In this document: piece by piece, positions 17,313 to 64,000 of the stretch | Layout: every line of letters begins with the position of its first letter | Numbering within the stretch: the stretch's first letter is position 1 | Source of the DNA: a virus | Lineage: Duplodnaviria > Caudoviricetes | Strand: one strand, 5' to 3' | IMG/VR virus record: IMGVR_UViG_3300015050_000882 | Span: 5,006 to 69,005 of that record | DNA length: 64,000 nt | Position numbers and translations under genes: made by a program | The notes under the pieces: model-generated | What the model was told of the DNA's origin: nothing | Database searches by the model: none | Seen by the model: the letters and a program-made list of their open reading frames with translations, nothing else

Positions 17313-17746
17313 TTGATCAACCTCGCCCGTTTCACCGCACGCACCGCCTTCTGGACAGCCGCCTCAACAAACCCGGCGGGAGCCTGGCGGCTCCACCCCT
17401 TGTTCAGGCGGTCAATGTAGGGGAGGTTGTTGCTGATAGCAATAGACGAATTGCGCCACCCGCTGTAGCCTGAGATCACGGCTGCACCCTGGGCCAGGGC
17501 GGCACTGCCGTTGGCTCCGCCGGTGCTCCCCTTCTCCCCCGGGCTGTAAGGCTCAATGGTCGTGCGGGGAGGAGCGTCAAGGCCCACAATCCAGTTGGAG
17601 CGTGCCCGGCCCTTGTCCACTGGAGTGCGCAGGACAACCACCTGATCGGCGGCCAGCGCGACGGTGCGGACAAGGCGGTCAGCCTCCTCCACCACGCCCG
17701 TGCCGATCAGGCTGATCCTTCTTGCGAATTGCTCCAGGGTCGGCAT
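17309..17746 (-). CDS. Neck/tail completion protein (HK97 gp10-like)
   Basis: TPVDKGRARSNW, NNLPYIDRLN, QAPAGFV. Confidence 0.8.
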   Translation of the reverse strand: MPTLEQFARRISLIGTGVVEEADRLVRTVALAADQVVVLRTPVDKGRARSNWIVGLDAPPRTTIEPYSPGEKGSTGGANGSAALAQGAAVISGYSGWRNSSIAISNNLPYIDRLNKGWSRQAPAGFVEAAVQKAVRAVKRARLIK

Positions 17747-18086
17747 TCTTCACCTTTGTCCTTGTGTAGGTCAGGAACTCATCATCAAGTCCCCGGATCA
17801 TCCAGCGGAAGTAAAGGGCAGCCTCCTCATCCAGACCCAGGCCCTCAGCAAATTTGTCAATAGCAGTCCACGGTATGGGTCCTGCAATCCCGTCCATCCC
17901 GATGAAGGGACGGCACGTGCTGAGCTCCTGGAAGGCGTCAAGGTACAGCTCGTGCCCCGGGAAAGGCGCGGGCGCGGATTGGATGAAATCAGGGAGTGGT
18001 ACGTTGCGTGCATAAGCCGCCTCCATGATCCTCTTTTCACCGCGCCCGTGCTCAAGGTCATATCGCAGGACTGCTCTCAGTTTCCC
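17679..18086 (-). CDS. Tail assembly chaperone GT, -1 frame extension
   Basis: Open -1 frame from slippery site to 17679; IPWTAIDKFA motif. Confidence 0.8.
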   Translation of the reverse strand, partial: GKLRAVLRYDLEHGRGEKRIMEAAYARNVPLPDFIQSAPAPFPGHELYLDAFQELSTCRPFIGMDGIAGPIPWTAIDKFAEGLGLDEEAALYFRWMIRGLDDEFLTYTRTKVKNADPGAIRKKDQPDRHGRGGGG

Positions 18087-18532
18087 AGTGCGGCCTCAGC
18101 GTCATCCTCCCGGAACAGCCCCAACTGCATGGACTGGTCCCGAAGGTCAATGAACAGGTCCGGGAGAGCCTCAAACAGCATGACCACGTTGGGCACGCTG
18201 AACTTCAGAGCCTCCCCCTGGAACGGCATCAGGCCGTCCCCCAGCTTGCTGCCCCAAGCCATGACGATGACCTCAGCCCAGACCTGGCGGGTGATCTTGT
18301 CCGCCACATCGTTGCTCAGGGTGTCGTTCATCTGCGCCCGCCGGTGCGGCTTCATGCGCGCATCCAGGAGCTTCTTGAAGCGGTTGTTGGTGGCCCCAGC
18401 CCGGGTGATGCGGAACCAAAAGTCACCGTAGTCAATCACGATGCCTTCAGCCTCCAGCTTCTCACTGGCCTTGAACAGGGCCTCAGGGCCACGGATGGCC
18501 CCGATGTCGGTTTTGTCTTTTGCTGCCGTCAC
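18077..18532 (-). CDS. Tail assembly chaperone G
   Basis: Between tail tube and TMP; GAGGAG RBS then GTG. Confidence 0.8.
   Translation of the reverse strand: MTAAKDKTDIGAIRGPEALFKASEKLEAEGIVIDYGDFWFRITRAGATNNRFKKLLDARMKPHRRAQMNDTLSNDVADKITRQVWAEVIVMAWGSKLGDGLMPFQGEALKFSVPNVVMLFEALPDLFIDLRDQSMQLGLFREDDAEAALGN
18080..18086 (-). promoter_or_regulatory. -1 ribosomal frameshift site G GGA AAC
   Basis: X XXY YYZ heptamer immediately before chaperone stop. Confidence 0.85.
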
Positions 18533-27500: not shown

Positions 27501-27715
27501 CAGATCGCGGTGCGCAGGTCAATGACCTCCTTGAGGAGGCTGTTCAGGCGGGACTTCTGGAAGTCGGTGAGGGAGCCGGTCAGCTTCTTCACCAGGTCCT
27601 GGTCCACCATTGTGAGGTGGTGGAGGATGTCGCCCAGCACGTCCTGGCTGTACTGGCGCACAGCAATCTGGCGCTGGAGCGTCAGGTCAAAGAGGTCCTG
27701 GTTGGCAGTGCTCAC
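24548..27715 (-). CDS. MuF (SPP1 gp7-like) head protein with C-terminal ADP-ribosyltransferase domain
   Basis: WTATLDGRT, PPAHPNCRS; C-terminal LIRN, FTSTS, GEKEILF (R-S-E triad). Confidence 0.85.
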   Translation of the reverse strand: MSTANQDLFDLTLQRQIAVRQYSQDVLGDILHHLTMVDQDLVKKLTGSLTDFQKSRLNSLLKEVIDLRTAIWKELQDTTKLDLTTLAKIEAQWEGQALEKVIPIEYTTASLDLDKIAAVAVAKPFQGATMSQWFSDLAAKDTAAITRAITLGVTEGQTTDEMIRTIRGTAKAKYADGLLAVSRRHAETIVRTATNHVSNQARNQVWEANSDIIRGKRWTATLDGRTSVICASRDGHVAPMGDKPLAPGEQLLSPPDAQPPAHPNCRSLLVAVLDGLGMIGDRPTVTDTRTREKREVDFRKIAKAEGKSIQQVRKEWADANVGSAPAATTYEQWLRTQPAAFQDKVLGATRGGLFRKGTPIGDFVTSTGATKKVMDLTVAKAAPNVRNYIRNELLKGTDQFEVLAKAQAAFPSAGVSTQQVGLLRKAMQNSGVLPGGGEVGVGTTKAAEMLQDFQASLPAHVQAAAPPGWADIIAAVDGFPKGIHTIMDEKGVKFVGPVVGKMAEDRLKATYANGLGHLLRDQSLDPLKSDLVTSIYQHAQGVDLGPLGISGEVLIDELFGLALNPGPVTSWGTSSANILLTFADDIKAIQTLLEKSLGPKGKVPQASHLSFPVTGHATVSSYAKAMISAGHNLDDVLEAVKYNFPDATVTDKSIAAYKAQLAGAKKLADMPPKVEVDAALAEAKLNPTAVLNKMNQLQDGFELMEDASASSKAALTLHKVYGNWAKVEAKLQPKVVLVKTPAPGAVRLTPQEISAAEKGWQALGPTSKKAAEAGVAHVKATGSMKDIEVVLKQVFGDFDPVKGKPLLDLIEKLAGLKQPPWAKAAAEAAEKAAKQAALQAAQAAEKAKALNVGMTPKRPALTPADGHPPPPRFTDEQKRSAVLREFGTVVRSNVKQLNDLEFTVVQKYTGGWYDQINGKLAQGDYASNYQVQALSELAQEAMRKLPAYPGNKLLIRNIQVQSGKMAAFNTRYAVGEIVEETRFTSTSTNGGFGRGSNTQFRITKHKSARDVDYFSLNQGEKEILFAPGARFRVLSVNEQRDNYGNVQRIIEMEEV

Positions 27716-29283
27716 TTGGCGGCCTTCTTAACAGGCTTGGGCGCAGGCTTCTTGCCAGGCGCAGGCTGGGGCGCTCCCCCGGGCGGCGCATTCGGGTCCA
27801 CCGGCGGCTGCGTCGCCTCGTGCAGCTCAATCGCGCTCTGGGTCTGCAGGGCAAGCTCCTGCTCCTGGCCCTGGATCATCTCCTGGGCCTCCAGCTCCAG
27901 CAGGTTGAGGTCCTCATCGGGGTCATAGTCATCAGACAGCCAACCCCGGCGCTGCATCTCAGCAATGTAGGCGTCCCGGGAGATGTCCCGGCGCTGCCGT
28001 GCGGCCTCAATCGCGTTCCAGCCAACCTCATCCGGGTCGGACAGCCCAAAGTCCACGGCCATCTCCACCGTGGTCTCAATGTCGCCCTTGCCGGCCCAGT
28101 CGGCCATGAACTTCAGGGCCTGCTCCAGCGCGTCCTTGAACCCCAGGGTGATTGCCTGGAGCTGGCTCAGGGCCTCAGCGCTGTTCAGCGCCCGGGTCGT
28201 GGCCTTCATGTCCCCGGGCTGCTCCTTGAGGAACTGCGCCCCATAGGAGGCCATGCCCTCCTCCACGTCCTTGAGCTTGTCCATGCCAACCTGGATCGCG
28301 GCCCCGGTGTGCTCCACATAGTAGAACTTGCCATCAGGCGCACGGGTTGCCAGTATCTGGTTGGGCCCAAGGCGCATCATCCCGCCCTCCCCGCCCGCGT
28401 CATTGGCGTCCACGCCTGACATGGCCAGCATCGGGAAGCAGGCGATGGAGATGATGTTGGTGAGGTCGGCATCAAGCTGCCAGTGGCGCACGTTCATGTA
28501 GGCCAGGTCCAGCAGCGGTGGCTTGGACACCCCCATCCCGTCCCGGCCCGTGTAGAAGGTGACCATGGGGATGTAGTCCAGGTCAGTCTCCCAGGTGTCC
28601 ACCATCTTCCACTTGTCCTTGCGGCCCTTGACCTCCTCCTTCTCCCAAATCTGGACCAGGCCAGGCTCAAGGACGCGGATGCGCTGGACAATGACCTCGC
28701 CCCAGCCCTTGCGGACCACATCAAACTCAGAGATGCGCACGTGCTCCAGGCACTCCTTGCCGTGCTCCATCCGGCCCGACATGAAGATGACCGACTCAGC
28801 GGTGTGGTGGACAAAGTAGGGGCGCACCTTGTCCTTGGCGTCATCGGCCCGGGTCCGGGGAGCTTCCCCCTCAGCGGGAGCCTCCTTGCGCGGCATGTCC
28901 ACAATGACGTGGCTCAGGCCCTTGGCCATCCCGTCCCTGAACCACCGGCGGGCAAACACGTCCAGGTTGTTCCCCTGGAGGTCAATGTCCTCACACCACT
29001 CAACGATGTCCTTGTCAGCCTCCTCATCAATCTGCACCGGGTCGCTGAAGGGCTTCCCGGCCAGCATGTCAAGGGTCAGCTCAGTCATGTTGAGGAGGGT
29101 GGCCTGCTGGATGCGGCGCTTCCAGCTGTTGTTGCTCTCCTCCTGGTGCTTGGGCAGCAGGACTTCCCCGGCCTGGCGCATGGTCTCAGTCCCGCCAAGG
29201 AGGGAGTTGATCAGCGCCCAGCGGGGAGCCATCAGCTGGTAGGCTGCCGACTGGTTGTCTGGTCCAAGCTCTTTTTCAGCCAT
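27712..29283 (-). CDS. Portal protein (DUF4055-like)
   Basis: LLGGTETMR, PPLLDLAYMNVRHWQ; follows TerL. Confidence 0.85.
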   Translation of the reverse strand: MAEKELGPDNQSAAYQLMAPRWALINSLLGGTETMRQAGEVLLPKHQEESNNSWKRRIQQATLLNMTELTLDMLAGKPFSDPVQIDEEADKDIVEWCEDIDLQGNNLDVFARRWFRDGMAKGLSHVIVDMPRKEAPAEGEAPRTRADDAKDKVRPYFVHHTAESVIFMSGRMEHGKECLEHVRISEFDVVRKGWGEVIVQRIRVLEPGLVQIWEKEEVKGRKDKWKMVDTWETDLDYIPMVTFYTGRDGMGVSKPPLLDLAYMNVRHWQLDADLTNIISIACFPMLAMSGVDANDAGGEGGMMRLGPNQILATRAPDGKFYYVEHTGAAIQVGMDKLKDVEEGMASYGAQFLKEQPGDMKATTRALNSAEALSQLQAITLGFKDALEQALKFMADWAGKGDIETTVEMAVDFGLSDPDEVGWNAIEAARQRRDISRDAYIAEMQRRGWLSDDYDPDEDLNLLELEAQEMIQGQEQELALQTQSAIELHEATQPPVDPNAPPGGAPQPAPGKKPAPKPVKKAAK

Positions 29284-52745: not shown

Positions 52746-53113
52746 GACACTCCCGGGAGGGGAGAGGAGGCTGGCTTGGTGGCCTGCTTGGCCCTGATCT
52801 TTGCGATGATCTCAGGGTGTTCCACACGGCCAAGCTCCACCCAGGCGCTGCGCTCCAGGTCAATCCCGGCGGCTGAACATAGGGCTGCCAAGGTGACGGA
52901 CACGCCCCCCACTTCCTGGGTCGGCTCTCCCACAGGACGCCCAAAGACATAGGCCACCAGCATGGTCGCCTCCTCCTGTGTCCCCTTCATTGCCTGGAAC
53001 AGCTCCAGGGCCTCCTCAAGGAAGCGGTGTGACCGCTCCGCCTGGTCGTTGGCCACCTTGTCGCCAAAGCATTCACGCACCCACTTGCGCACCCGGGTCT
53101 GAAACTCAAGCAT
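52742..53113 (-). CDS. MazG-like helical protein
   Basis: RFLEEALEL, QEVGGV. Confidence 0.65.
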   Translation of the reverse strand: MLEFQTRVRKWVRECFGDKVANDQAERSHRFLEEALELFQAMKGTQEEATMLVAYVFGRPVGEPTQEVGGVSVTLAALCSAAGIDLERSAWVELGRVEHPEIIAKIRAKQATKPASSPLPGVS

Positions 53114-53513
53114 GGCGCACCTCCATCCCGATCAGCTCCATCATCTCAGCCGCCTGGTCGCAAAGCTCCTTGATGGCCGGGTCATCGCGCCAGGGTCCCC
53201 GGGGACACACCACGGCTTCCACGCCCGCCGCTGCCATCAGCTTGACGCAATCCGGGCATGGATGGTGTGTGACGTACACGGTGGCCCCCTGAGCCATCCG
53301 GCCTGCGTTCACCACCACCCGGGCCTCAGCGTGGACCACCGCCCGGTACTTGAGTGGGCGGTCCCCCCACCAGGAGGAGGGGATGCCCGGGGGGAAGTCA
53401 TTGAAGCCATCGGCCACCACCACCCCGTCCCGGACCAAGACAGCCCCAACCTTGGTGCTGGGGTCTGGGCTGCGTGCGGCTGCAACCTGGGCCATTTGAA
53501 AGAAGGTCGTCAC
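53106..53513 (-). CDS. dCMP deaminase
   Basis: SPDPSTKVGAV, HAE, PCPDC. Confidence 0.92.
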   Translation of the reverse strand: MTTFFQMAQVAAARSPDPSTKVGAVLVRDGVVVADGFNDFPPGIPSSWWGDRPLKYRAVVHAEARVVVNAGRMAQGATVYVTHHPCPDCVKLMAAAGVEAVVCPRGPWRDDPAIKELCDQAAEMMELIGMEVRHA

Positions 53514-55914: not shown

Positions 55915-56321
55915 GGTGCCAGCTCCCCCTTCAGGCGGCGCTCCTCCCGCACGATCATCTCCAGCAGCAGGTCACGGGCATCCAGGAGGTCCTGGTCAAA
56001 CTCCCAGCAGTCCAGTCGGCTGGTCAGCTCAACCTCGTTGGTGTCCATCTTGGATGATTCAATGTAGCGGCCCAGCAGGGCATCGCTGCGGAGAGGTCGG
56101 GTGCGGGCGCAAGGGGTGCGCTCAGGCTTCTCCTTCAGCTGGAGGTGGAGCTTGTCGATGTAGCTCAGGGCCTTCTTGAGGTCCTGGATGCCGCCCTTCA
56201 CCCGCCAGCGCGGGAGGTACTTGGTGGCCGTGGCCTCCAGGTATCCCAGCCCCGTGTCCGGCACCCAGTCCCAGTGCTGGTACTCCGCCTTGTAGTGGTC
56301 CCCACCAACTTGTTCAACCAT
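55911..56321 (-). CDS. DUF3310-like protein
   Basis: QVGGDHY, KYLPRW, GGIQDLKKA. Confidence 0.8.
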   Translation of the reverse strand: MVEQVGGDHYKAEYQHWDWVPDTGLGYLEATATKYLPRWRVKGGIQDLKKALSYIDKLHLQLKEKPERTPCARTRPLRSDALLGRYIESSKMDTNEVELTSRLDCWEFDQDLLDARDLLLEMIVREERRLKGELAP

Positions 56322-56535
56322 TGTTCCGATCCTCCTGCTGGGCCTTGAGCTGAGACAGCTCCATCAAGGCCCGGTTGTACTCCGCTGTGGCTCCCTGGAT
56401 TTGCACGGTCAGCCGCCCCACCCGCTCCTCCAGGGCCAGGATGCGGGCTGCGTCCAGGTCATTCTGCTTGACCGCCGCCGTGAGCTTCTCAGCGTTGGTC
56501 GGCTGGCTCCTCTTGTCCGTCATGCCGTCACTCAT
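56314..56535 (-). CDS. Coiled-coil hypothetical protein
   Basis: Coupled ORF. Confidence 0.65.
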   Translation of the reverse strand: MSDGMTDKRSQPTNAEKLTAAVKQNDLDAARILALEERVGRLTVQIQGATAEYNRALMELSQLKAQQEDRNNG

Positions 56536-57044
56536 TTTGCACCGTCCTTGTTGTTTGGATCCATGAACAGGTCCACCACCTCCAACAGGGTGGGCTTCCC
56601 CGGCCTTTCATAGAGGTTGTTGGCCACCCGTATCCAATAGCGCAAATCTTCACAATTGGTAGGGTGCTCCACCGTCTGCTTTCTCAAGGCAGGCTTGTCC
56701 TTGGTGAGGTACATGTGGAGCAGTCGCCCGTAGAGCTTCTGCTGAAGTTTGGACACCTTGAGGTCTGGAAACCTTGCCCGGAGTGCCTCCACAAAGCCTG
56801 GGACCTTGCGCACGCACTCCTCCCAGAGGCGCTGAGCCGTGATGTTGTTCTGGCCCAGGGTCAGGGAGGAGAGGCGGATTTCATCCGACACTTTCCGGGC
56901 ATACAACCAGATGACCAGTTTTGCGTACCTCAGGCGCGGGTCCAGCTCCCAGCCTGTCCGGTTCCCGGACCAGCCAGGCTTTGGAATGTCCCGCCCAGGA
57001 GGCGGATTGTATGGAACGTCACCATGTTGGCTCATGTCAACCAC
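56532..57044 (-). CDS. Lower-GC basic hypothetical protein
   Basis: About 53-63% GC in four sampled lines, atypical codons. Confidence 0.6.
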   Translation of the reverse strand: MVDMSQHGDVPYNPPPGRDIPKPGWSGNRTGWELDPRLRYAKLVIWLYARKVSDEIRLSSLTLGQNNITAQRLWEECVRKVPGFVEALRARFPDLKVSKLQQKLYGRLLHMYLTKDKPALRKQTVEHPTNCEDLRYWIRVANNLYERPGKPTLLEVVDLFMDPNNKDGAK

Positions 57045-57568
57045 CCCTCAAACCGCGCCCAGCCGTCCAGGCGCACCTCCTTGATAAGCTCCCGGACCAC
57101 CGCCGGCAACTCCCCCATCTCTGCGCGGGCATCCCAGCTCTTGTCCATCTCCCGGCGCATGCCTGAGACAGACTTGTTGCCCATCTCCTCCTGCTCCAGG
57201 CACCACAGCCACAGCTCCAGGCTGTCGGCGCAGCGGAGCTTCACCCAGTCCGCATCGGACAGGGAGTGCTCATCAGGTATCTGGAGGGCCAGGAACACGT
57301 CCCGCTCCTCCTTCTCCAGTCCATCGGCCAGCCCCGGGAGGCGCTTGATGGTCGGTGAGGGAATGTCCCCGGTGTGGCGCTCCGGCACGTCATGGAACAT
57401 GGCGAAGTCCACCAGGTGCCGGTCCTCAGGCCAGAGGAGCCGGATCAGGACGCACACGCCCCAGGAGTGGCCCCCGTTGGTGTAGCTCTGCCCCACCTTG
57501 GGCCACATGTGGCACCGCTCCACCATCCCGGATTCACGGATGTACTTGATGCGATCAGACAGTTTCAC
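57032..57568 (-). CDS. HD-domain nucleotidase (YfbR-like)
   Basis: VERCH, HSW, FHDVPERHTGDIP, ADSLE. Confidence 0.85.
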   Translation of the reverse strand: MKLSDRIKYIRESGMVERCHMWPKVGQSYTNGGHSWGVCVLIRLLWPEDRHLVDFAMFHDVPERHTGDIPSPTIKRLPGLADGLEKEERDVFLALQIPDEHSLSDADWVKLRCADSLELWLWCLEQEEMGNKSVSGMRREMDKSWDARAEMGELPAVVRELIKEVRLDGWARFEGWLT

Positions 57569-58607
57569 CGGCAGCCTCCTTGGCCTTTGCGGCCGCAGCA
57601 TCGCGGTTGGCCAGCCAGAGCAGCGCCCCGGCCCTCCAGTCGCTGTCCTTGGGCATCTGGTCCAGGACTTCCCGGGCGGCAGCGGAGCCGTTGGCCTTGA
57701 AGGCGCGGTGTGCCATGACCATCGGGCAGGCCACCCTGCGGAGGAAGCTGTTGCGGATGCCGATGCGGGCGGGGTCCTCCATGAACATCGCCAGGTCCTG
57801 GTCAAACTCCTGGGTGTTGAAGCCGTCATGGAACATCGGGGTGGGCTTGACGGTCCCGGCCTGGTAGGGGTCAGGCGCAAACTGCTCCTGGGTCTCATCC
57901 ACGCCCCAGGGCCACTCCTCCCCGGCCTTGCCCATCGTGGCCAGGTATCCGTGGAAGTTGTTGCTGATCTGGAAGTACTGCCCAACAGGCACCCCGATTG
58001 CGGCGGCCAGGTACTCCTGCAGCACGCTGAAGTGGACCGCGTTGGCCCCATAGGCCCCCCAGACCATGTCGTTGGACCGGCAGAACACCGTGATGTCCAG
58101 CGCCCCCTCGGGGTTGACCGCCGGGAGGACCATCAGGTTGCAGGGGATGTCCCGGCCCCCGTTGTCCGCCGCGTCCTGGTCGGTGTTGGCGTCATACATC
58201 TGGATGGTCACCCGCCGGTCCAGCTTGTCAGCCTTCAGGCGCTTGATGGCCCAGGCCAGCTGGTCACGCCCGAAGTGCTGCCGCCAGCGGTGGCCATAGG
58301 CCCCGGGCTGGGTCTTGCCGCCGTCATCGCTGTAGTTGGCCATGCGCGGGACAAAGGGGAGGAGCGGTGCCAGGTCGTTGCGGCCCGCCAGCATCCAGAG
58401 GCTCTCAAACAGGTGGAAGAAGGGGTTGGCATCCCGCCCCGGGTGGAGCAGCACCCGCTCGCTGGGTGCCTCATACACCGTGGTGACAGGGTATGCCGCC
58501 CGGAGCACAGGCCCGTTGCGGCTGTCCTGCTCAACGCCCTCGTGCCGGAGCAGCTGAGCCCCGGCCCAGAGGGCGTGGTTGACGTTGCGTGCGCCGATGG
58601 TGATCAT
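57555..58607 (-). CDS. dUMP hydroxymethylase (thymidylate synthase fold)
   Basis: IPCN, CRSNDMVWGAYGANAVHF (Asn, dUMP-specific), SNNFHGY; cluster context. Confidence 0.85.
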   Translation of the reverse strand: MITIGARNVNHALWAGAQLLRHEGVEQDSRNGPVLRAAYPVTTVYEAPSERVLLHPGRDANPFFHLFESLWMLAGRNDLAPLLPFVPRMANYSDDGGKTQPGAYGHRWRQHFGRDQLAWAIKRLKADKLDRRVTIQMYDANTDQDAADNGGRDIPCNLMVLPAVNPEGALDITVFCRSNDMVWGAYGANAVHFSVLQEYLAAAIGVPVGQYFQISNNFHGYLATMGKAGEEWPWGVDETQEQFAPDPYQAGTVKPTPMFHDGFNTQEFDQDLAMFMEDPARIGIRNSFLRRVACPMVMAHRAFKANGSAAAREVLDQMPKDSDWRAGALLWLANRDAAAAKAKEAAGETV

Positions 58608-58768
58608 GCGAAGGCTCCCTGAAAGACACTGCCCAGGAGGTAGGCGCGCTGGCCCCGCCGCCACTGGATGGATGTACAGGCGTCCCGCGCCCGGGCGGCT
58701 TCCCCAGCCTCTTGAAGGAGGCGCATGCGCTCCATCTGAAGCTCAGGGGTGGCTGGTTGTTCACTCAT
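58604..58768 (-). CDS. Small hypothetical protein
   Basis: AGGAG RBS; coupled. Confidence 0.5.
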   Translation of the reverse strand: MSEQPATPELQMERMRLLQEAGEAARARDACTSIQWRRGQRAYLLGSVFQGAFA

Positions 58769-58778
58769 GTCAGTCTCC

Positions 58779-59789
58779 TCAGAAGGTCTGGCGGCCAGGG
58801 ACATACAGGGAGCGTGGCCTGCCCTCCCCCGTCCTGGCCCGAAGCCACTTGTCAGTCTCACACAGGCAATTCTGGATGTCAGAGAGGTCAATGGGCGGGA
58901 CCCAGGGTGCCCGCTTCTCCCCCTGCTCATCGAACAGCGCCCGCATCTCCTCCAGCCCCTGCGCCTGGGACAGGCTGAAGTCCACGTCCCGGCCATGGAG
59001 CCGGTTCAGCCCCCGGCGGGACCCAGGCCCCAGGGCAGCCCACGTGTTGATGTCGGTGGCGTTGCGCAGGAGCCGCGTGTGGCGCATGTCCACCACCACC
59101 TGGTACGCCATGAAGGGTCCCCAGCCGATGTACCGCTTGTCCTGGAACCAGCCCCAGACCTGCTCCAGGGTGTGGCCCGTGTTGTCATTCATCGCCCTCC
59201 AGCCGCCCCGGTCCTCCCAGAGCCGCCCCAGGACAATCCGGGCGATGTACTGCTGCTTGGTCCAGCTGTACCACTCCGCCTTGGGGTTGCTCTCCGCCCG
59301 GATCATGTAGGAGCCAGTGTACACCTTCTTGCCCAGGGCAGACCAGACATCCAGCGCGTCCCCCATCCACGCAGGCTCAAAGCCGACGCGGGAGGGCCAG
59401 CTGGGCAGGTCGTTGTTCTTCTGCCCCGGGAACACCTTGGTGTTGATCAGCCAGGCCAGGGTCTCAGGCCAGTTGATGTACCGGGCGGTGGCCAGCATGA
59501 ACCAGAGGTCAGGGTGGTCCTTGAACGGCTCCCGGATGTGCCGGTCAATCCACATCGTCACCCGGTCCAGCTCCCGGAACACGTTGCAGAAGCTGAACTG
59601 CGCCAGAACGGGGTCGCTGGTCAGCGGGCCTGTCTCCCGCATGGCGTAGTGGTCAGGGTCAGCCTCCTCCAGGTCAGCGCCCAGGGGAGCGTGCACGTCA
59701 CCCGCGTCCACGCCCCGGCGCAGCTCCTTGCGGATGTAGATGGCGTGGCGCTCGTTGACCCACTGCCAGAAGGGAGCTGAGTCAATCAC
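58779..59789 (-). CDS. aGPT-Pplase1 / 5-hmdU DNA kinase helical-domain family
   Basis: VNERHAIY, FCNVFRELDRVT, GWGPFMAYQVVVD, GPGSRRGLNRL, QNCLCETDKW. Confidence 0.85.
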   Translation of the reverse strand: MIDSAPFWQWVNERHAIYIRKELRRGVDAGDVHAPLGADLEEADPDHYAMRETGPLTSDPVLAQFSFCNVFRELDRVTMWIDRHIREPFKDHPDLWFMLATARYINWPETLAWLINTKVFPGQKNNDLPSWPSRVGFEPAWMGDALDVWSALGKKVYTGSYMIRAESNPKAEWYSWTKQQYIARIVLGRLWEDRGGWRAMNDNTGHTLEQVWGWFQDKRYIGWGPFMAYQVVVDMRHTRLLRNATDINTWAALGPGSRRGLNRLHGRDVDFSLSQAQGLEEMRALFDEQGEKRAPWVPPIDLSDIQNCLCETDKWLRARTGEGRPRSLYVPGRQTF

Positions 59790-60093
59790 AGAAAGCCTCC
59801 CCCACCAAGGAGCGTTCAAACACCTGGAGCAGCACCCGCCGGTCGGCAGGCTCCCCAGGGTATCCCGACACCGCCGCCGCCACACCCATCAGGGCAATCT
59901 CAGCCGCCACCAGCTGGGGGTCAGCCTGGATGGACCGGGCCAGCTCCTGGAGCTCACGGCTGTCGTGGAGCTTGCGGCAGGCCATGATGTACTCATTGCC
60001 GAACCTGACAATCATCTCCTTGGGGATGGCAGCATCCAGCCTCACAGCCCTGAAGCCGTCTGGTGGCTCCGGTGCGTGCGGATCATCAGACAT
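59782..60093 (-). CDS. Hypothetical protein
   Basis: Coupled ORF. Confidence 0.6.
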   Translation of the reverse strand: MSDDPHAPEPPDGFRAVRLDAAIPKEMIVRFGNEYIMACRKLHDSRELQELARSIQADPQLVAAEIALMGVAAAVSGYPGEPADRRVLLQVFERSLVGEAFCD

Positions 60094-60685
60094 GTCCCAT
60101 CTCCTCCAGGGTGTTCATCAGGTCCTGCTGGGCCCGGTCGTGGCGCAGCAGGACTGTTGCGATGCCCGCCGCCTCAAACTTGGCCCTGGTCGCCAGGATG
60201 GCCTTGATCTTGTCCTTGACCAGGTCCACCTTGATGTCCCGGACCTTCCCGGCCTTCTCCTGGCGGCCCTTGATCCGCTCCAGGCACAGCTCCAGCGGCG
60301 TGTCCAGGTAGGCCACCAGAACTTCCCCCCGGTTGAACCCGCTGAAGAAGTTGAGCCAGCTCCCCGCGACGGTGGAGGCCAGCACGCCCTCGCACACGAC
60401 ATGCTTGGGTGGGCTGGGCAGATCGGTCGCGGCCCGCAGGACAGCCTTCTGCTGGAGCTCAAAGCTGGGGATGGTGTCCATGCCCCCGCATCCCTGGCGA
60501 TAGCTCCCCACGGCCAGGAAGTGTCCAGGGAAGCCCCAGCCCTCAACAGAGGAGCGGCGCTTGGGGTCCTTCTTGGTCGGGTCGTCATACCAGACCAGGT
60601 CAACCGGCGCAGCATTCGGGTGGAGGAGCGTGCGGGCCAGCGTGGTCTTGCCGCTGCCGTTGGTTCCCCTGATGTTGATGATCAC
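60086..60685 (-). CDS. P-loop nucleotide kinase of hypermodification clusters
   Basis: IRGTNGSGKT, GGMDTI, VVCEG, LDTPLELCLERI. Confidence 0.85.
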   Translation of the reverse strand: MIINIRGTNGSGKTTLARTLLHPNAAPVDLVWYDDPTKKDPKRRSSVEGWGFPGHFLAVGSYRQGCGGMDTIPSFELQQKAVLRAATDLPSPPKHVVCEGVLASTVAGSWLNFFSGFNRGEVLVAYLDTPLELCLERIKGRQEKAGKVRDIKVDLVKDKIKAILATRAKFEAAGIATVLLRHDRAQQDLMNTLEEMGHV

Positions 60686-60719
60686 TTGTCATTCTCCATT
60701 TCTGACAGTCAGCCCCCGG

Positions 60720-60749
60720 AGCCTATCCCCGGGGTGCAGGGTCGGTCAA
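60720..60749 (-). promoter_or_regulatory. Promoter with inverted CTATCCCCGG variant box
   Basis: TTGACC-N18-TAGGCT; box 60723-60732. Confidence 0.6.
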
Positions 60750-61607
60750 GCCGGGCACCTTTGGGTACACAGCCAGGAAGTCATGCGCACCCCAGGCCTC
60801 CAGCTCCGCCCGGTGGCTCTGGGTGTCACACCCGATCCAGTAGTGGCCCCGGCGGGCAGACTTCCACTTGCACAGGACAGTCTCCACCTCCTGGACGTTG
60901 ACGTGGCGGCCCCCCACCGGCGGTGCCAGGATGGCCTGGTATGCCTCCAGCATCACGTCAGTGACCTCCTGGGGGGAGCTGAGGCCCATCAGGGGTGCCG
61001 CCATCTCCGCCCCCTCCTTGGGGTCCTTGTACATGGTCGTCAGGAGAGGGGGGAAGGCCACCGGCACGTCCAGCACCCGCTCCAGCATGTCCGCCGCCTT
61101 GAACGCAATCCAGGGGCCAAACTGGGGCCACTGGGTCACCGCCGCCTCAACGTCCTTGAGGGTGCACAGGTGCTCCAGGCTGTTGATGGCCACCTCTGGT
61201 CGGCTGAAGCGGTGGGCCAGCCAGTGGACACTCTGCACGCACTTGTCCCCGCGCCAGTGGCGGCGCTCGTGCGCCCTGGGCCAGCGCTGGTCCGGTCTGG
61301 GGGAGGTCGGTTGGATCATCCCAGACACACCGGCCCCCAGAGGTGGTGGCACCGTGACGTTTGCCGCCGCCTCCCGTAGTCTGACCCAAAACTCCACGCC
61401 CTGGTGCTGGGAGAGCCACCAGGAGGCACCGACGCTGTAGCAGCACCAGTATGCCAGGAGGAAGCGGCGCACCCGGTCGGTGTCCATGGTCCCGGTGTAG
61501 CGGGCATTGACCAGCCCACTGTACAGCGGGTCATGGTCATGCGTCATGATGAGCTGGCGGCCCCAGGCAACCGGGTCGCCAAGGAGGTCCTCACCCGGGC
61601 GGCTCAT
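60723..61607 (-). CDS. Amino acid:DNA transferase (aGPT-Pplase2 family)
   Basis: DHDPLY, LAYWCCY, ERRHWRG, FGPWIAFKAADMLER, VETVLCKWK, HYWIG. Confidence 0.85.
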   Translation of the reverse strand: MSRPGEDLLGDPVAWGRQLIMTHDHDPLYSGLVNARYTGTMDTDRVRRFLLAYWCCYSVGASWWLSQHQGVEFWVRLREAAANVTVPPPLGAGVSGMIQPTSPRPDQRWPRAHERRHWRGDKCVQSVHWLAHRFSRPEVAINSLEHLCTLKDVEAAVTQWPQFGPWIAFKAADMLERVLDVPVAFPPLLTTMYKDPKEGAEMAAPLMGLSSPQEVTDVMLEAYQAILAPPVGGRHVNVQEVETVLCKWKSARRGHYWIGCDTQSHRAELEAWGAHDFLAVYPKVPGLTDPAPRG

Positions 61608-61792
61608 TCCTCATCCCCCTGGCAGTTGGGGCAGGTGTGGACCCACTCCCCACCCTCCTTGCTGATCTTCCAACCCTCCCGCTTCAGCTGGACGGGGACC
61701 TGGGCAAAGTCTCCCCGGGCCTCCACGGTCGTGTAGTTGGAGCAGCTGTTGCAGTTGACCTGGAAGTCACTGCCATCTTTCTCAACGGTCAT
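61604..61792 (-). CDS. Zn-ribbon protein
   Basis: CNSC and CPNC. Confidence 0.75.
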   Translation of the reverse strand: MTVEKDGSDFQVNCNSCSNYTTVEARGDFAQVPVQLKREGWKISKEGGEWVHTCPNCQGDEE

Positions 61793-61795
61793 CTT

Positions 61796-62155
61796 TCAGT
61801 CCTCTTGTGATGCGGCCCAGGCCAGGAAGTCCCTGAGCTGGGGGTTGTCGCCCAGGAGCGTCATGGTCCAGGAGGCCACGTGCGACACGATGTGCTCCTC
61901 AGTGTAGGCATCCCGCCTCCCCCCGGCGGTCTGGTGGATCGCCCCCACCTCAAACGTGGCGTGGAGGCACTCGTGAAAGAGGGTCTCAGCGGCCTGCCTT
62001 GGGCCGTGTGAGGTGTCCACCCGGATCGCTGCGGCCTGATAGTCGCACTGGCCATAGTGCTTCTCAGCCATGGCCACCGCCGGGTCCCAGTCGATGACCC
62101 TGAACATCTTCCAACCAACCTTCACGCGGGTCGGGAACGGTGGGCGCTCACTCAT
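61796..62155 (-). CDS. Small HExxH metallopeptidase-like protein
   Basis: ETLFHECLHA, later E. Confidence 0.7.
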   Translation of the reverse strand: MSERPPFPTRVKVGWKMFRVIDWDPAVAMAEKHYGQCDYQAAAIRVDTSHGPRQAAETLFHECLHATFEVGAIHQTAGGRRDAYTEEHIVSHVASWTMTLLGDNPQLRDFLAWAASQED

Positions 62156-63548
62156 AGACGCTCACCTTGAAGTCAGAGAGGCGGTTGGCCTTGGCAGCCC
62201 CGAACACCAGGGAGCCGCAGGCCCCCTTCCCCTCAGGGTTGTCATCGCCGCAGTGCAGGCAGCCAGAGGGCGGGCACTCCGCCACCTCGGTGAAGGGCAC
62301 GGCGGTGTCCAGCCGGGTGAACATCGGGACCTTGTGGCCGTGGCACTGGTCAGCGGTCAGGAAGTCCCGCCCGATGGACCGGGTGCGCTTGTCAATCCGC
62401 TCCCCCTTGGCGTTGCGCTCGTTGTTGATGTACTGGTACTCATAGCAGGTGCTGTAGGTCATCCCCACCTTGGTCGCGTGCGCCTGCAGCCGCCGGTGGG
62501 CGTCCAGCCTCCAGGCCTCATCAATGCACTTCTGGCCGCCCATGTTGTCCGTGAACAGGGATTCAAAGAAGCCTCCCCGGTTGTCCCCGAACCTGAACTT
62601 GATGCGCTCCACCATGGCCGGTGCCCAGGAGTATCCGGCCTCAACAAACTTGACGATCACGTGGTTGTTGCCGACGCGGGCCAGCATGTTGAACAGCTCC
62701 ATGATCTCCTCCACGCTGGTCACCCCGGGCACAATCGGGTTGACCTGGATGGAGGTGTAGATGCCCTGCTTGCGCAGCTCCCCCACCTGTTCGATGTGCT
62801 CCAGCAGGCCCATCGCGCCCGGGCTGAGCTTCTTCCAGTCCTCCGGGTCACAGGTGTTGAGGGACTTCTGGGCATAGCTGTAGGGGTTGCGCTTGAGCAG
62901 GTCAATGGCCCAGTCAGGATAGCTCAGCCGGGACAAGAAGAACACCGGCAGGCCCCGGTCGGCAAAGGCGTTGGCCCCGTTCTGGGTGTTGTGGTACACG
63001 TCCTCCAGCGGCAGGAAGGGGTCGGTGAAGCTGCTGAAGTAACCGGCGCTGGCTGTCTTCATCCGGTCCAGCTGCTTGGCGACGTGCTGGCCATAGGTGG
63101 CAGGCACCGTGATCAGCCCGCTCCCCCGGTATCCCTTCATGCCGCTGTTGATGTAGCAGAAGGCGCAGCCCACGGTGCAGAAGCCCCCATAAGGCTCGGT
63201 GAGGATGGCATCGGTCATGCAGGGGCGCTCCCGGGAGGAAGCCTGGGCCAGGCCCTTGCCCTGGTACCAGCCCTGGAGGTCCTTGGCGCTGTCCAGCCGG
63301 ATGTGGGGCGCATAGGACTTCCCGTCAAAGCCGATGTACACCTTGCGGTCCATGTCAGGCTCCATCCCCTGCATCTTGGCCACCTTGGCCCAGCGGAAGC
63401 GTGCCACCCGGCCCGTCAGCGGGTCATCCTCAGTCTCAATGGGCCCAAGGAAGTCCCGCATGTCCGGGTCCGGGCGCATGAAGAACTTGTAGGCATCCTG
63501 GGCAGGCTCATCGCTCTGTCCTGCCAACCAGTCGGTTTCAGCTTGCAT
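62148..63548 (-). CDS. Radical SAM enzyme (M6 gp53-like isomerase candidate)
   Basis: CTVGCAFC; Cys-rich C-terminus; cluster context. Confidence 0.85.
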   Translation of the reverse strand: MQAETDWLAGQSDEPAQDAYKFFMRPDPDMRDFLGPIETEDDPLTGRVARFRWAKVAKMQGMEPDMDRKVYIGFDGKSYAPHIRLDSAKDLQGWYQGKGLAQASSRERPCMTDAILTEPYGGFCTVGCAFCYINSGMKGYRGSGLITVPATYGQHVAKQLDRMKTASAGYFSSFTDPFLPLEDVYHNTQNGANAFADRGLPVFFLSRLSYPDWAIDLLKRNPYSYAQKSLNTCDPEDWKKLSPGAMGLLEHIEQVGELRKQGIYTSIQVNPIVPGVTSVEEIMELFNMLARVGNNHVIVKFVEAGYSWAPAMVERIKFRFGDNRGGFFESLFTDNMGGQKCIDEAWRLDAHRRLQAHATKVGMTYSTCYEYQYINNERNAKGERIDKRTRSIGRDFLTADQCHGHKVPMFTRLDTAVPFTEVAECPPSGCLHCGDDNPEGKGACGSLVFGAAKANRLSDFKVSVYE

Positions 63549-63861
63549 TCTTTCTCTCCATCTTCAGTTGTTGGTTTTCAGACGCCGTCATCACCTTGAT
63601 GTGGTCCGGGCAGACGCACATGCTGAAGCAGCAGTCGTGGTCCCGGTGGTGCCCCGGCGGGCACTCGTGCTTGTTGAGGACTTCAGAGCTGAAGCGGTGG
63701 GCGCGCACAGATCGCTTCCCCAGCCTGAAGCTCCCGTACCATTTGCGGTTGCCCTTCCCCCGGCTCCTGGCCCCGGTCCAGTACCAGCAGCCGTTGGGGA
63801 GCTTCTCCACGTACCGCATGAACCTGGCGATGTCAGCCTCAGTGGCGTGGAGCAGGCTCAT
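63538..63861 (-). CDS. HNH endonuclease
   Basis: CWYWTG, YGSF, RAHR, DH.C...CVCPDH. Confidence 0.85.
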   Translation of the reverse strand: MSLLHATEADIARFMRYVEKLPNGCWYWTGARSRGKGNRKWYGSFRLGKRSVRAHRFSSEVLNKHECPPGHHRDHDCCFSMCVCPDHIKVMTASENQQLKMERKNAS

Positions 63862-63863
63862 GG

Positions 63864-64000
63864 TCACATCCAATCCAATTCAATGCCGGACCAGTCGTGG
63901 GTCACGCCCCGGCGCAGCAGCTCATCGTTGTACTTCTGGAACTGTCCCCCACCCACGTATGGGCTGCCCCGCATGTGGGCCCACCGGGAAGCCTCCCGGA
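63864..64000 (-). CDS. C-terminus of a gene entering from the right edge
   Basis: REASRWAHMRGSPYVGGGQFQKYNDELLRRGVTHDWSGIELDWM*. Confidence 0.55.
   Translation of the reverse strand, partial: REASRWAHMRGSPYVGGGQFQKYNDELLRRGVTHDWSGIELDWM

Follow-up and report, generated by a model that had tools for sequence, protein, structure and literature searches.

A very probable M6-type thymidine hypermodification cluster in an uncultured YuA-like siphophage

Genes of the cluster and closure of the genome map

IMG/VR record IMGVR_UViG_3300015050_000882 is a viral sequence of 69,005 bp, and bases 5006-69005 of that record make up the 64,000-nucleotide stretch analyzed here, which we call the window. Its right-hand part carries a cluster of genes for thymidine hypermodification that resembles the cluster of Pseudomonas phage M6. 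The genes that an earlier note had recognized from the letters of the window (dUMP hydroxymethylase, aGPT-Pplase1, kinase, amino acid:DNA transferase (ADDT), radical S-adenosylmethionine enzyme (rSAM), HD protein and a nearby dCMP deaminase) are real; each lies on the minus strand and has a Pfam or PHROG match. The HExxH protein and the zinc ribbon (ZnR) that it had placed between the rSAM and ADDT genes are also there. The genes are listed in window coordinates, except that the last, which encodes a pyridoxal 5'-phosphate (PLP) enzyme, has the coordinates of the record (genome).

53106..53513, minus strand: dCMP deaminase (PF00383, E 1e-18; 57% identical to the homolog in Pseudanabaena phage Pam3)
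53592..55691, minus strand: family A DNA polymerase (PolA) of YuA type, 699 aa (PF00476, E 8.7e-44; 71% identical to Pam3, 53-55% to M6/YuA)
57032..57568, minus strand: HD-domain 5'-deoxynucleotidase, YfbR-like, 178 aa (PF12917, E 1.1e-6; phrog_6047, E 1.6e-32)
57555..58607 (alternative start 58664), minus strand: thymidylate-synthase (TS)-like dUMP hydroxymethylase, 350 aa (PF00303, E 1e-12; phrog_5131, E 1.6e-113)
58779..59789, minus strand: aGPT-Pplase clade 1 / HMUDK helical-domain protein (Pplase1), 336 aa (PF18723, E 2.1e-40; 53% identical to M6)
59782..60093, minus strand: orf103, a small gene without a Pfam or PHROG match, weakly similar (E 9e-5) to a 98-aa gene that has the same position in Rhizobium phage RHph_I72
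60086..60685, minus strand: P-loop 5-hydroxymethyl-2'-deoxyuridine (5-hmdU) DNA kinase, 5-HMUDK (PF18748, E 1.3e-8, above the cut-off; Walker A GTNGSGKTT)
60723..61607, minus strand: ADDT (aGPT-Pplase2), a predicted glycine:DNA transferase (PF18724, E 5.5e-18)
61604..61792, minus strand: accessory four-Cys ZnR protein, 62 aa (CxxC...CxxC; phrog_12041, E 4.6e-6)
61796..62155, minus strand: accessory HExxH gluzincin-like protein, 119 aa (HECLH and an invariant E87)
62148..63548, minus strand: rSAM, ortholog of the M6 gp53 glycinyl-thymine isomerase (phrog_9252, E 2.8e-208)
63538..63873, minus strand: HNH endonuclease (phrog_3593, E 2.8e-19), inserted between the PLP and rSAM genes
63864..64000, minus strand: 3' part of orf96 (96 aa), which the window edge truncates; by circular reconstruction the whole gene runs from genome 68869 through the terminal repeat to 277
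genome 259-1107, minus strand, outside the window: PLP decarboxylase (PF00291, E 3e-12; phrog_7093, E 5.9e-72; 50% identical to M6 gp52)

The first 123 bases of the record are identical to the last 123. This is an exact direct terminal repeat, the class to which IMG/VR assigns the record, and the map therefore closes on itself. Followed across the right edge of the window, the minus strand carries the HNH endonuclease gene, then orf96, which reads through the 123-bp repeat, and then the PLP gene, whose stop codon lies 136 nt past the edge. Only orf96 and the HNH endonuclease gene separate the PLP and rSAM genes. The PLP protein scores 46.9 bits against PF00291 (cut-off 35), and the match at genome 535-1068 is the sole PALP match in the whole genome. 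It is 50% identical to M6 gp52, and retains the Schiff-base Lys, aligned to K36 (SKTRG). On the circular map the gene for the last enzyme of the pathway is intact and has its customary position.

The window itself contains no PLP, flavin or acetyltransferase gene, as the earlier note had observed; the PALP match falls outside it, and the DAO/flavin adenine dinucleotide (FAD) profile PF01266 and the GNAT profile PF00583 gave no match across the whole genome, while both match in all control genomes. The note had offered two explanations. The first, that the finishing enzyme is the gene cut at the right edge, was correct in placing the enzyme beyond the edge but not in its choice of gene; the cut gene is orf96, immediately upstream of which lies the PLP gene. 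The second was a different, non-decarboxylated product with the HExxH and ZnR genes as atypical finishing genes. This second explanation is not supported. With the PLP gene present and intact, gene content offers no argument for a new product, and by the note's own criterion an upstream PLP gene takes away that half of the claim to novelty. The practical lesson is that when a pathway seems to have a gap at a window edge, the circular genome should be consulted.

The G+C content of the cluster region is 64%, so spurious long open reading frames (ORFs) are common there; the genuine genes form one tightly packed series on the minus strand. A 339-aa ORF (57032-58051) was rejected as the full HD gene. 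It is over-extended, running in an alternative frame over the 3' half of the TS gene, and the HD protein corresponds to its last ~178 residues. The gene starts at a GTG at 57568 with AAGGAGG upstream, in agreement with the alignment of M6, YuA and RHph_I72. The 57555-58051 part of the ORF gives 44% tblastn 'identity' to Pam3, but the similarity stems from conservation of the high-GC DNA, and there is no second gene here.

Orthology to the M6 enzymes and the predicted route

The synthesis of 5-(2-aminoethyl)-2'-deoxyuridine (5-NedU) in phage M6 has been reconstituted with four enzymes: the gp54 kinase, the gp51 glycine:DNA transferase, the gp53 rSAM isomerase and the gp52 PLP decarboxylase (PMC8989533). 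Orthologs of all four are present here with 33-62% identity, and their catalytic motifs are kept. In tblastn comparison with the M6 genome the rSAM is 62% identical, the PLP enzyme 50%, ADDT 37% and the P-loop kinase 33%; Pplase1, TS and HD proteins are 53%, 47% and 38% identical respectively.

The rSAM aligns with M6 gp53 over 458 aa. The iron-sulfur motif quoted for gp53, CTVGCAFC (PMC8989533), is identical, the second Cys cluster is kept, and the protein is 79% identical to that of RHph_I72. The kinase retains its Walker A sequence and is closer to its counterparts in RHph_I72 and Pam3 (57-59%) than to M6 gp54. In the HD protein the H...HD...D residues are kept, and it aligns with gp18 of M6/YuA. 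When aligned with M6, the TS-like enzyme retains its catalytic Cys (PCN) as well as the RSND...GAN Asn. An Asn in a TS-like active site marks specificity for uracil over cytosine, distinguishing TS from dCMP hydroxymethylase. The kept Asn suggests that this enzyme would act on uracil, not cytosine.

ADDT matches the structures PDB 25qc (E 2.8e-46) and 8z2m, the PaMx11 glycinyltransferase (E 7e-42). Its ETVLC aligns with E243/T244 (metal ligands) and C247 (nucleophile) of PaMx11 gp46, and its GPWIAFK keeps the W and K that are W146/K150 of gp46, which hold glycine in the structure. Among cultured phages, the glycine transferases of M6 and PaMx11 are 37% and 35% identical to ADDT (E about 1e-40 to 1e-44), and the putrescine transferase of PhiW-14 is far more distant (24.5%, E 5e-13).

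The arrangement of the genes was compared with 38 IMG/VR loci retrieved with rSAM as the query, and with other long IMG/VR or NCBI contigs (e.g. L050 and L057; numbers with the prefix L denote such loci). The order PLP-(HNH)-rSAM-ADDT-kinase-Pplase1-TS-HD is contiguous in Pam3, RHph_I72 and long IMG/VR or NCBI contigs. Across the 38 loci a PLP ortholog accompanies rSAM wherever the contig reaches far enough upstream, and is usually adjacent to it or just before it; the two also occur together in L050 and L057.

The orthology to M6 gp51-gp54 and the conserved catalytic motifs uphold the M6-type route proposed in the earlier note, from 5-hmdU through phosphorylation and addition of glycine to isomerization by rSAM. 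Our analysis covers gene presence, orthology, conserved catalytic residues and synteny, and each chemical step and the final product are carried over from the M6 reconstitution (PMC8989533). In outline, the dCMP deaminase would supply dUMP, which the TS-like dUMP hydroxymethylase would convert to 5-hmdUMP. Once the triphosphate form had been made, the phage PolA would incorporate 5-hmdU into DNA instead of T, and the HD nucleotidase probably biases the nucleotide pool. The P-loop kinase would then phosphorylate 5-hmdU within the DNA, and ADDT would swap the phosphate for glycine to give N-alpha-glycinylthymidine. This would be isomerized by the rSAM to C-alpha-glycinylthymidine, and decarboxylation of the latter by the PLP enzyme would yield 5-NedU. 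Given the orthologs of gp51-54 with their catalytic motifs kept, the base predicted is that of M6, and 5-NedU formed by the M6 route is most likely.

Four observations weigh against this prediction. The Pfam Radical_SAM match of the rSAM is sub-threshold (E 0.008), so that its assignment rests on the PHROG match, the identity to M6 gp53 and the Cys motif. ADDT is only 37% identical to M6 gp51, and its amino-acid specificity is uncertain from sequence. The Nmad5 gene, present in M6, YuA, Pam3 and L057, is missing; Nmad5 lies outside the four-enzyme M6 reconstitution. Lastly, HExxH genes turn up between rSAM and ADDT in at least two lineages, which makes some supporting role possible. Taking all this together, we consider it very probable that the genome encodes a complete M6/YuA-type thymidine hypermodification cluster, with the PLP decarboxylase just past the window edge, the HExxH and ZnR genes as dispensable passengers and 5-NedU as the product.

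Where Nmad5 (PF18757) occurs, in M6/YuA, Pam3 and L057, it is found between aGPT-Pplase1 and TS. RHph_I72 also lacks it, and in the present genome the two flanking genes are separated by only 115 nt.

The interval between the rSAM and ADDT genes

The rSAM-ADDT interval is a hot spot of variable small genes among the relatives. Its contents are as follows.

L011, L012, L037: no gene, 24-68 nt
L042, L048: ZnR only
L013-18, L057: small ORF, HExxH and ZnR
L050, L019: HExxH only
L020: P-loop kinase-like gene and a small ORF
RHph_I72: gene annotated polynucleotide kinase/phosphatase and a small ORF
L022-24: a pair of small ORFs, largely hydrophobic, that may encode membrane proteins

Neither the HExxH nor the ZnR gene is found in the nearest relatives by rSAM identity (L011, 81%; L012, 79%), where the gap between rSAM and ADDT is 24-36 nt. 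Neither was found in Pam3 or RHph_I72 by tblastn (E ≤ 1e-3). Since the closest rSAM relatives lack both genes, and both sit alongside an intact PLP gene, they are dispensable for the core set. They are accessory to the PLP step, do not replace it and are not finishing enzymes.

Homologs of the ZnR protein (31-42% identity) are encoded directly upstream of ADDT in L013-18, L021, L042, L048, L057 and L058. Wherever the gene is present it occupies this position, overlapping the ADDT start. In cultured phages it gave no tblastn match at E ≤ 0.01.

The HExxH gene appeared at first to be unique to this genome, as a first IMG/VR scan was empty. That idea was abandoned when tblastn on the loci fetched with rSAM found copies in L013-19. 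The protein is 59-68% identical to the copies in the slot of L013-18 and L057, and 40% to those of L050 and L019. Across 41 diverse homologs H61, E62 and E87 never vary and H65 hardly does, a gluzincin-like pattern. It gave no match in Pfam at E ≤ 10. The AlphaFold2 (AF2) model, with a predicted local distance difference test score (pLDDT) of 89, has weak matches to zincin folds: SPRTN (Z 5.2), PprI bound to single-stranded DNA (5.2), ArdC (4.7), Wss1 (4.3) and minigluzincins (about 4), all below the noise guide of the tool at ~8. Foldseek returned nothing with this model at E ≤ 0.001. As modeled, the HExxH protein resembles the small zincin metallohydrolases (SprT/SPRTN, Wss1, ArdC, IrrE/PprI and minigluzincins) in that its HExxH motif is on a helix, a conserved Glu follows downstream, and a small beta-sheet is combined with helices. 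It differs from them in that, at 119 aa with Z ≤ 5.2, it has no profile match to any Pfam family, and the likeness is one predicted from the model.

The family is phrog_1233. An exhaustive profile search counted 1774 clusters at 50% identity, and almost all of these proteins stand alone, with lengths of about 105-120 aa. Nine contexts were sampled. They include T7-like Ralstonia phages, where the gene lies between DNA polymerase and exonuclease, a position beside a head-tail adaptor, a contig with a PDDEXK nuclease and a muramidase, a place near glycosyltransferases, and the interior of M6-type clusters. In the tree the in-cluster copy of L050 type stands apart from the clade of the present genome, and the nearest neighbors of both lie outside clusters. 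Support is modest, and a single origin of the in-cluster copies may be compatible with it. The label 'in cluster' was verified by locus for P0006 and P0014 and by similarity to L013-18 for P0005 and P0007-9.

These data bear on a possible function at the DNA that would leave the product unchanged. The HExxH protein might be a DNA-linked protease, clearing covalent transferase-DNA intermediates in the manner of SprT or Wss1, or an anti-defense factor with ArdC-like anti-restriction activity. The identity of the best structural matches of the model is in keeping with this, as is the retention of the HExxH motif and downstream Glu in the diverse homologs. The proposed mechanism of ADDT passes through a covalent Cys-C6 enzyme-DNA intermediate (PMC11472151), and this too counts in its favor, together with the hint from the tree that the two in-cluster lineages are not sisters. 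But every Z is below the noise guide, Foldseek is empty, the tree support is weak enough to allow one origin, the majority of sampled family members lie outside modification clusters, and none of the observations tie the protein to DNA. We therefore think such a role unlikely. The chances are similarly small for the evolutionary form of the idea, in which the protein, with or without its ZnR partner, would have been recruited more than once into the rSAM-ADDT slot to serve the modification machinery, e.g. by proteolysis of trapped transferase-DNA intermediates or by countering host defense aimed at modified DNA.

A second possibility is that the base is not 5-NedU, either because the HExxH and/or ZnR protein adds or alters a step or because ADDT uses another amino acid. 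The two small genes are translationally coupled within the cluster, the ZnR stop overlapping the ADDT start and the HExxH start overlapping the rSAM stop, and the occurrence of HExxH in the same slot of L013-18, L057, L050 and L019, with the low identity of ADDT to gp51, could be read in the same way. Yet the genome has well-conserved orthologs of the PLP enzyme and rSAM, the pair that fixes the M6 chemistry, the closest rSAM relatives do without both accessory genes, and the sampled members of the very large HExxH family occur in unrelated contexts. Given that ADDT also keeps the W and K that contact glycine in PaMx11 gp46, a variant product is improbable.

It is highly improbable that the cluster is incomplete or inactive, with the 123-bp repeat marking real ends, the PLP gene set apart from the rest and the pathway stalled at C-alpha-glycinylthymidine or earlier: the direct-terminal-repeat class agrees with this, as does the linear record in having the PLP gene at one end and the rSAM gene at the other, but orf96 reads through the repeat, the PLP and rSAM genes are contiguous in every long-contig relative, and physical ends at the repeat would still leave the genome with a PLP gene that is intact and has its catalytic Lys.

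Neighboring genes, affiliation and comparison with known systems

The HNH endonuclease gene occupies the same spot between the PLP and rSAM genes in Pam3, RHph_I72, L013-18 and L050 (50-75% identity). L012 and L057 lack it, and there the PLP and rSAM genes are direct neighbors. The HNH gene has the look of a mobile insertion of homing type in the modification operon. Directly upstream of the PLP gene, outside the window, is the gene of a 296-aa protein (genome 1175-2065, minus strand) assigned to phrog_6247, 'DNA topoisomerase', with a topo VI label in Pam3; it is conserved at 69-72% in Pam3 and L050. The position is that of ADDT in M6, and the gene was considered as a second ADDT paralog, but BLASTP gave no similarity to ADDT or to YuA gp10.

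Directly downstream of the HD gene are orf170 and orf73 (56314-57044, minus strand), which have the same position in the NCBI metagenome contig L056, with 56% and 47% identity respectively. Neither has a family match. For orf170 a Pfam match to SGNH/GDSL hydrolases (E 0.003) is below the cut-off; the AF2 model is all-helical with a pLDDT of 62.5 and Atlas was empty, so given the helical fold and low confidence the match is spurious. A uracil-DNA glycosylase-fused DNA polymerase was also rejected, since the family of PMC13697223 comprises SP15-like large polymerases, unlike the 699-aa YuA-type PolA found here. L057 has a dCTP deaminase/dUTPase-like gene (PF22769 DCD; 17742-18245) in place of the dCMP deaminase. 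The two are alternative means of supplying dUMP to the hydroxymethylase.

The portal protein (27712-29283, minus strand) is closest to those of Pseudomonas yuaviruses, with 50% identity, and the phage as a whole is thus a distant YuA-like siphophage. For the replication and modification module the closest counterparts are in Rhizobium phages and Pam3, and Rhizobium and Pseudanabaena are the hosts of the cluster's nearest cultured relatives. Within the YuA-like group the genome is either a mosaic or a deeply branching member. No tRNA genes were found in it, and matches to metagenome-assembled genome bins labeled Flavobacteriales and Anaerolinea are not credible as evidence of the host. The gene set is not new; one more uncultured phage joins an already wide set with the known M6-type 5-NedU pathway. 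What it adds is an extension of the pathway into a lineage that links Pseudomonas yuaviruses with Rhizobium and Pseudanabaena phages.

In the pathway of Pseudomonas phage PaMx11 to 5-acetylaminomethyl-dU (5-AcNmdU), gp46 is PUGT, gp47 an FAD lyase, gp48 an acetyltransferase and gp49 the kinase. The kinase and glycine:DNA transferase steps are shared with the present cluster. The FAD lyase and acetyltransferase, which accompany ADDT and the kinase in clusters of that type, are absent by the whole-genome profiles, and rSAM and PLP enzymes are present instead.

M6 and YuA have all four of the reconstituted enzymes in common with this genome, along with the dUMP hydroxymethylase, aGPT-Pplase1 and HD nucleotidase (M6 cluster: PMC8989533, PMC5889632). 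However, their ADDT is upstream of the PLP gene, whereas here it lies between rSAM and the kinase. They carry Nmad5, absent here, and the present cluster has the HNH gene and the small ORFs (orf96, HExxH, ZnR and orf103) inserted.

The modification clusters of Pam3 and of the Rhizobium phages RHph_I65, RHph_I72 and RHph_TM26 are annotated, but we did not find a characterization of their modified base in the literature. Pam3 keeps Nmad5 and has an unannotated gap of 228 nt between rSAM and ADDT, and in RHph_I72 the small ORF that accompanies the gene annotated polynucleotide kinase/phosphatase in that interval encodes 75 aa. Apart from these differences Pam3 and RHph_I72 have the same order as the present genome, PLP-(small ORF)-HNH-rSAM-ADDT-kinase-Pplase1-TS-HD-...-PolA-dCMP deaminase, and Pam3 and the three Rhizobium phages show the highest identities to it: 66-79% for rSAM, 53-58% for ADDT, 59-66% for the PLP enzyme and 69-71% for PolA.

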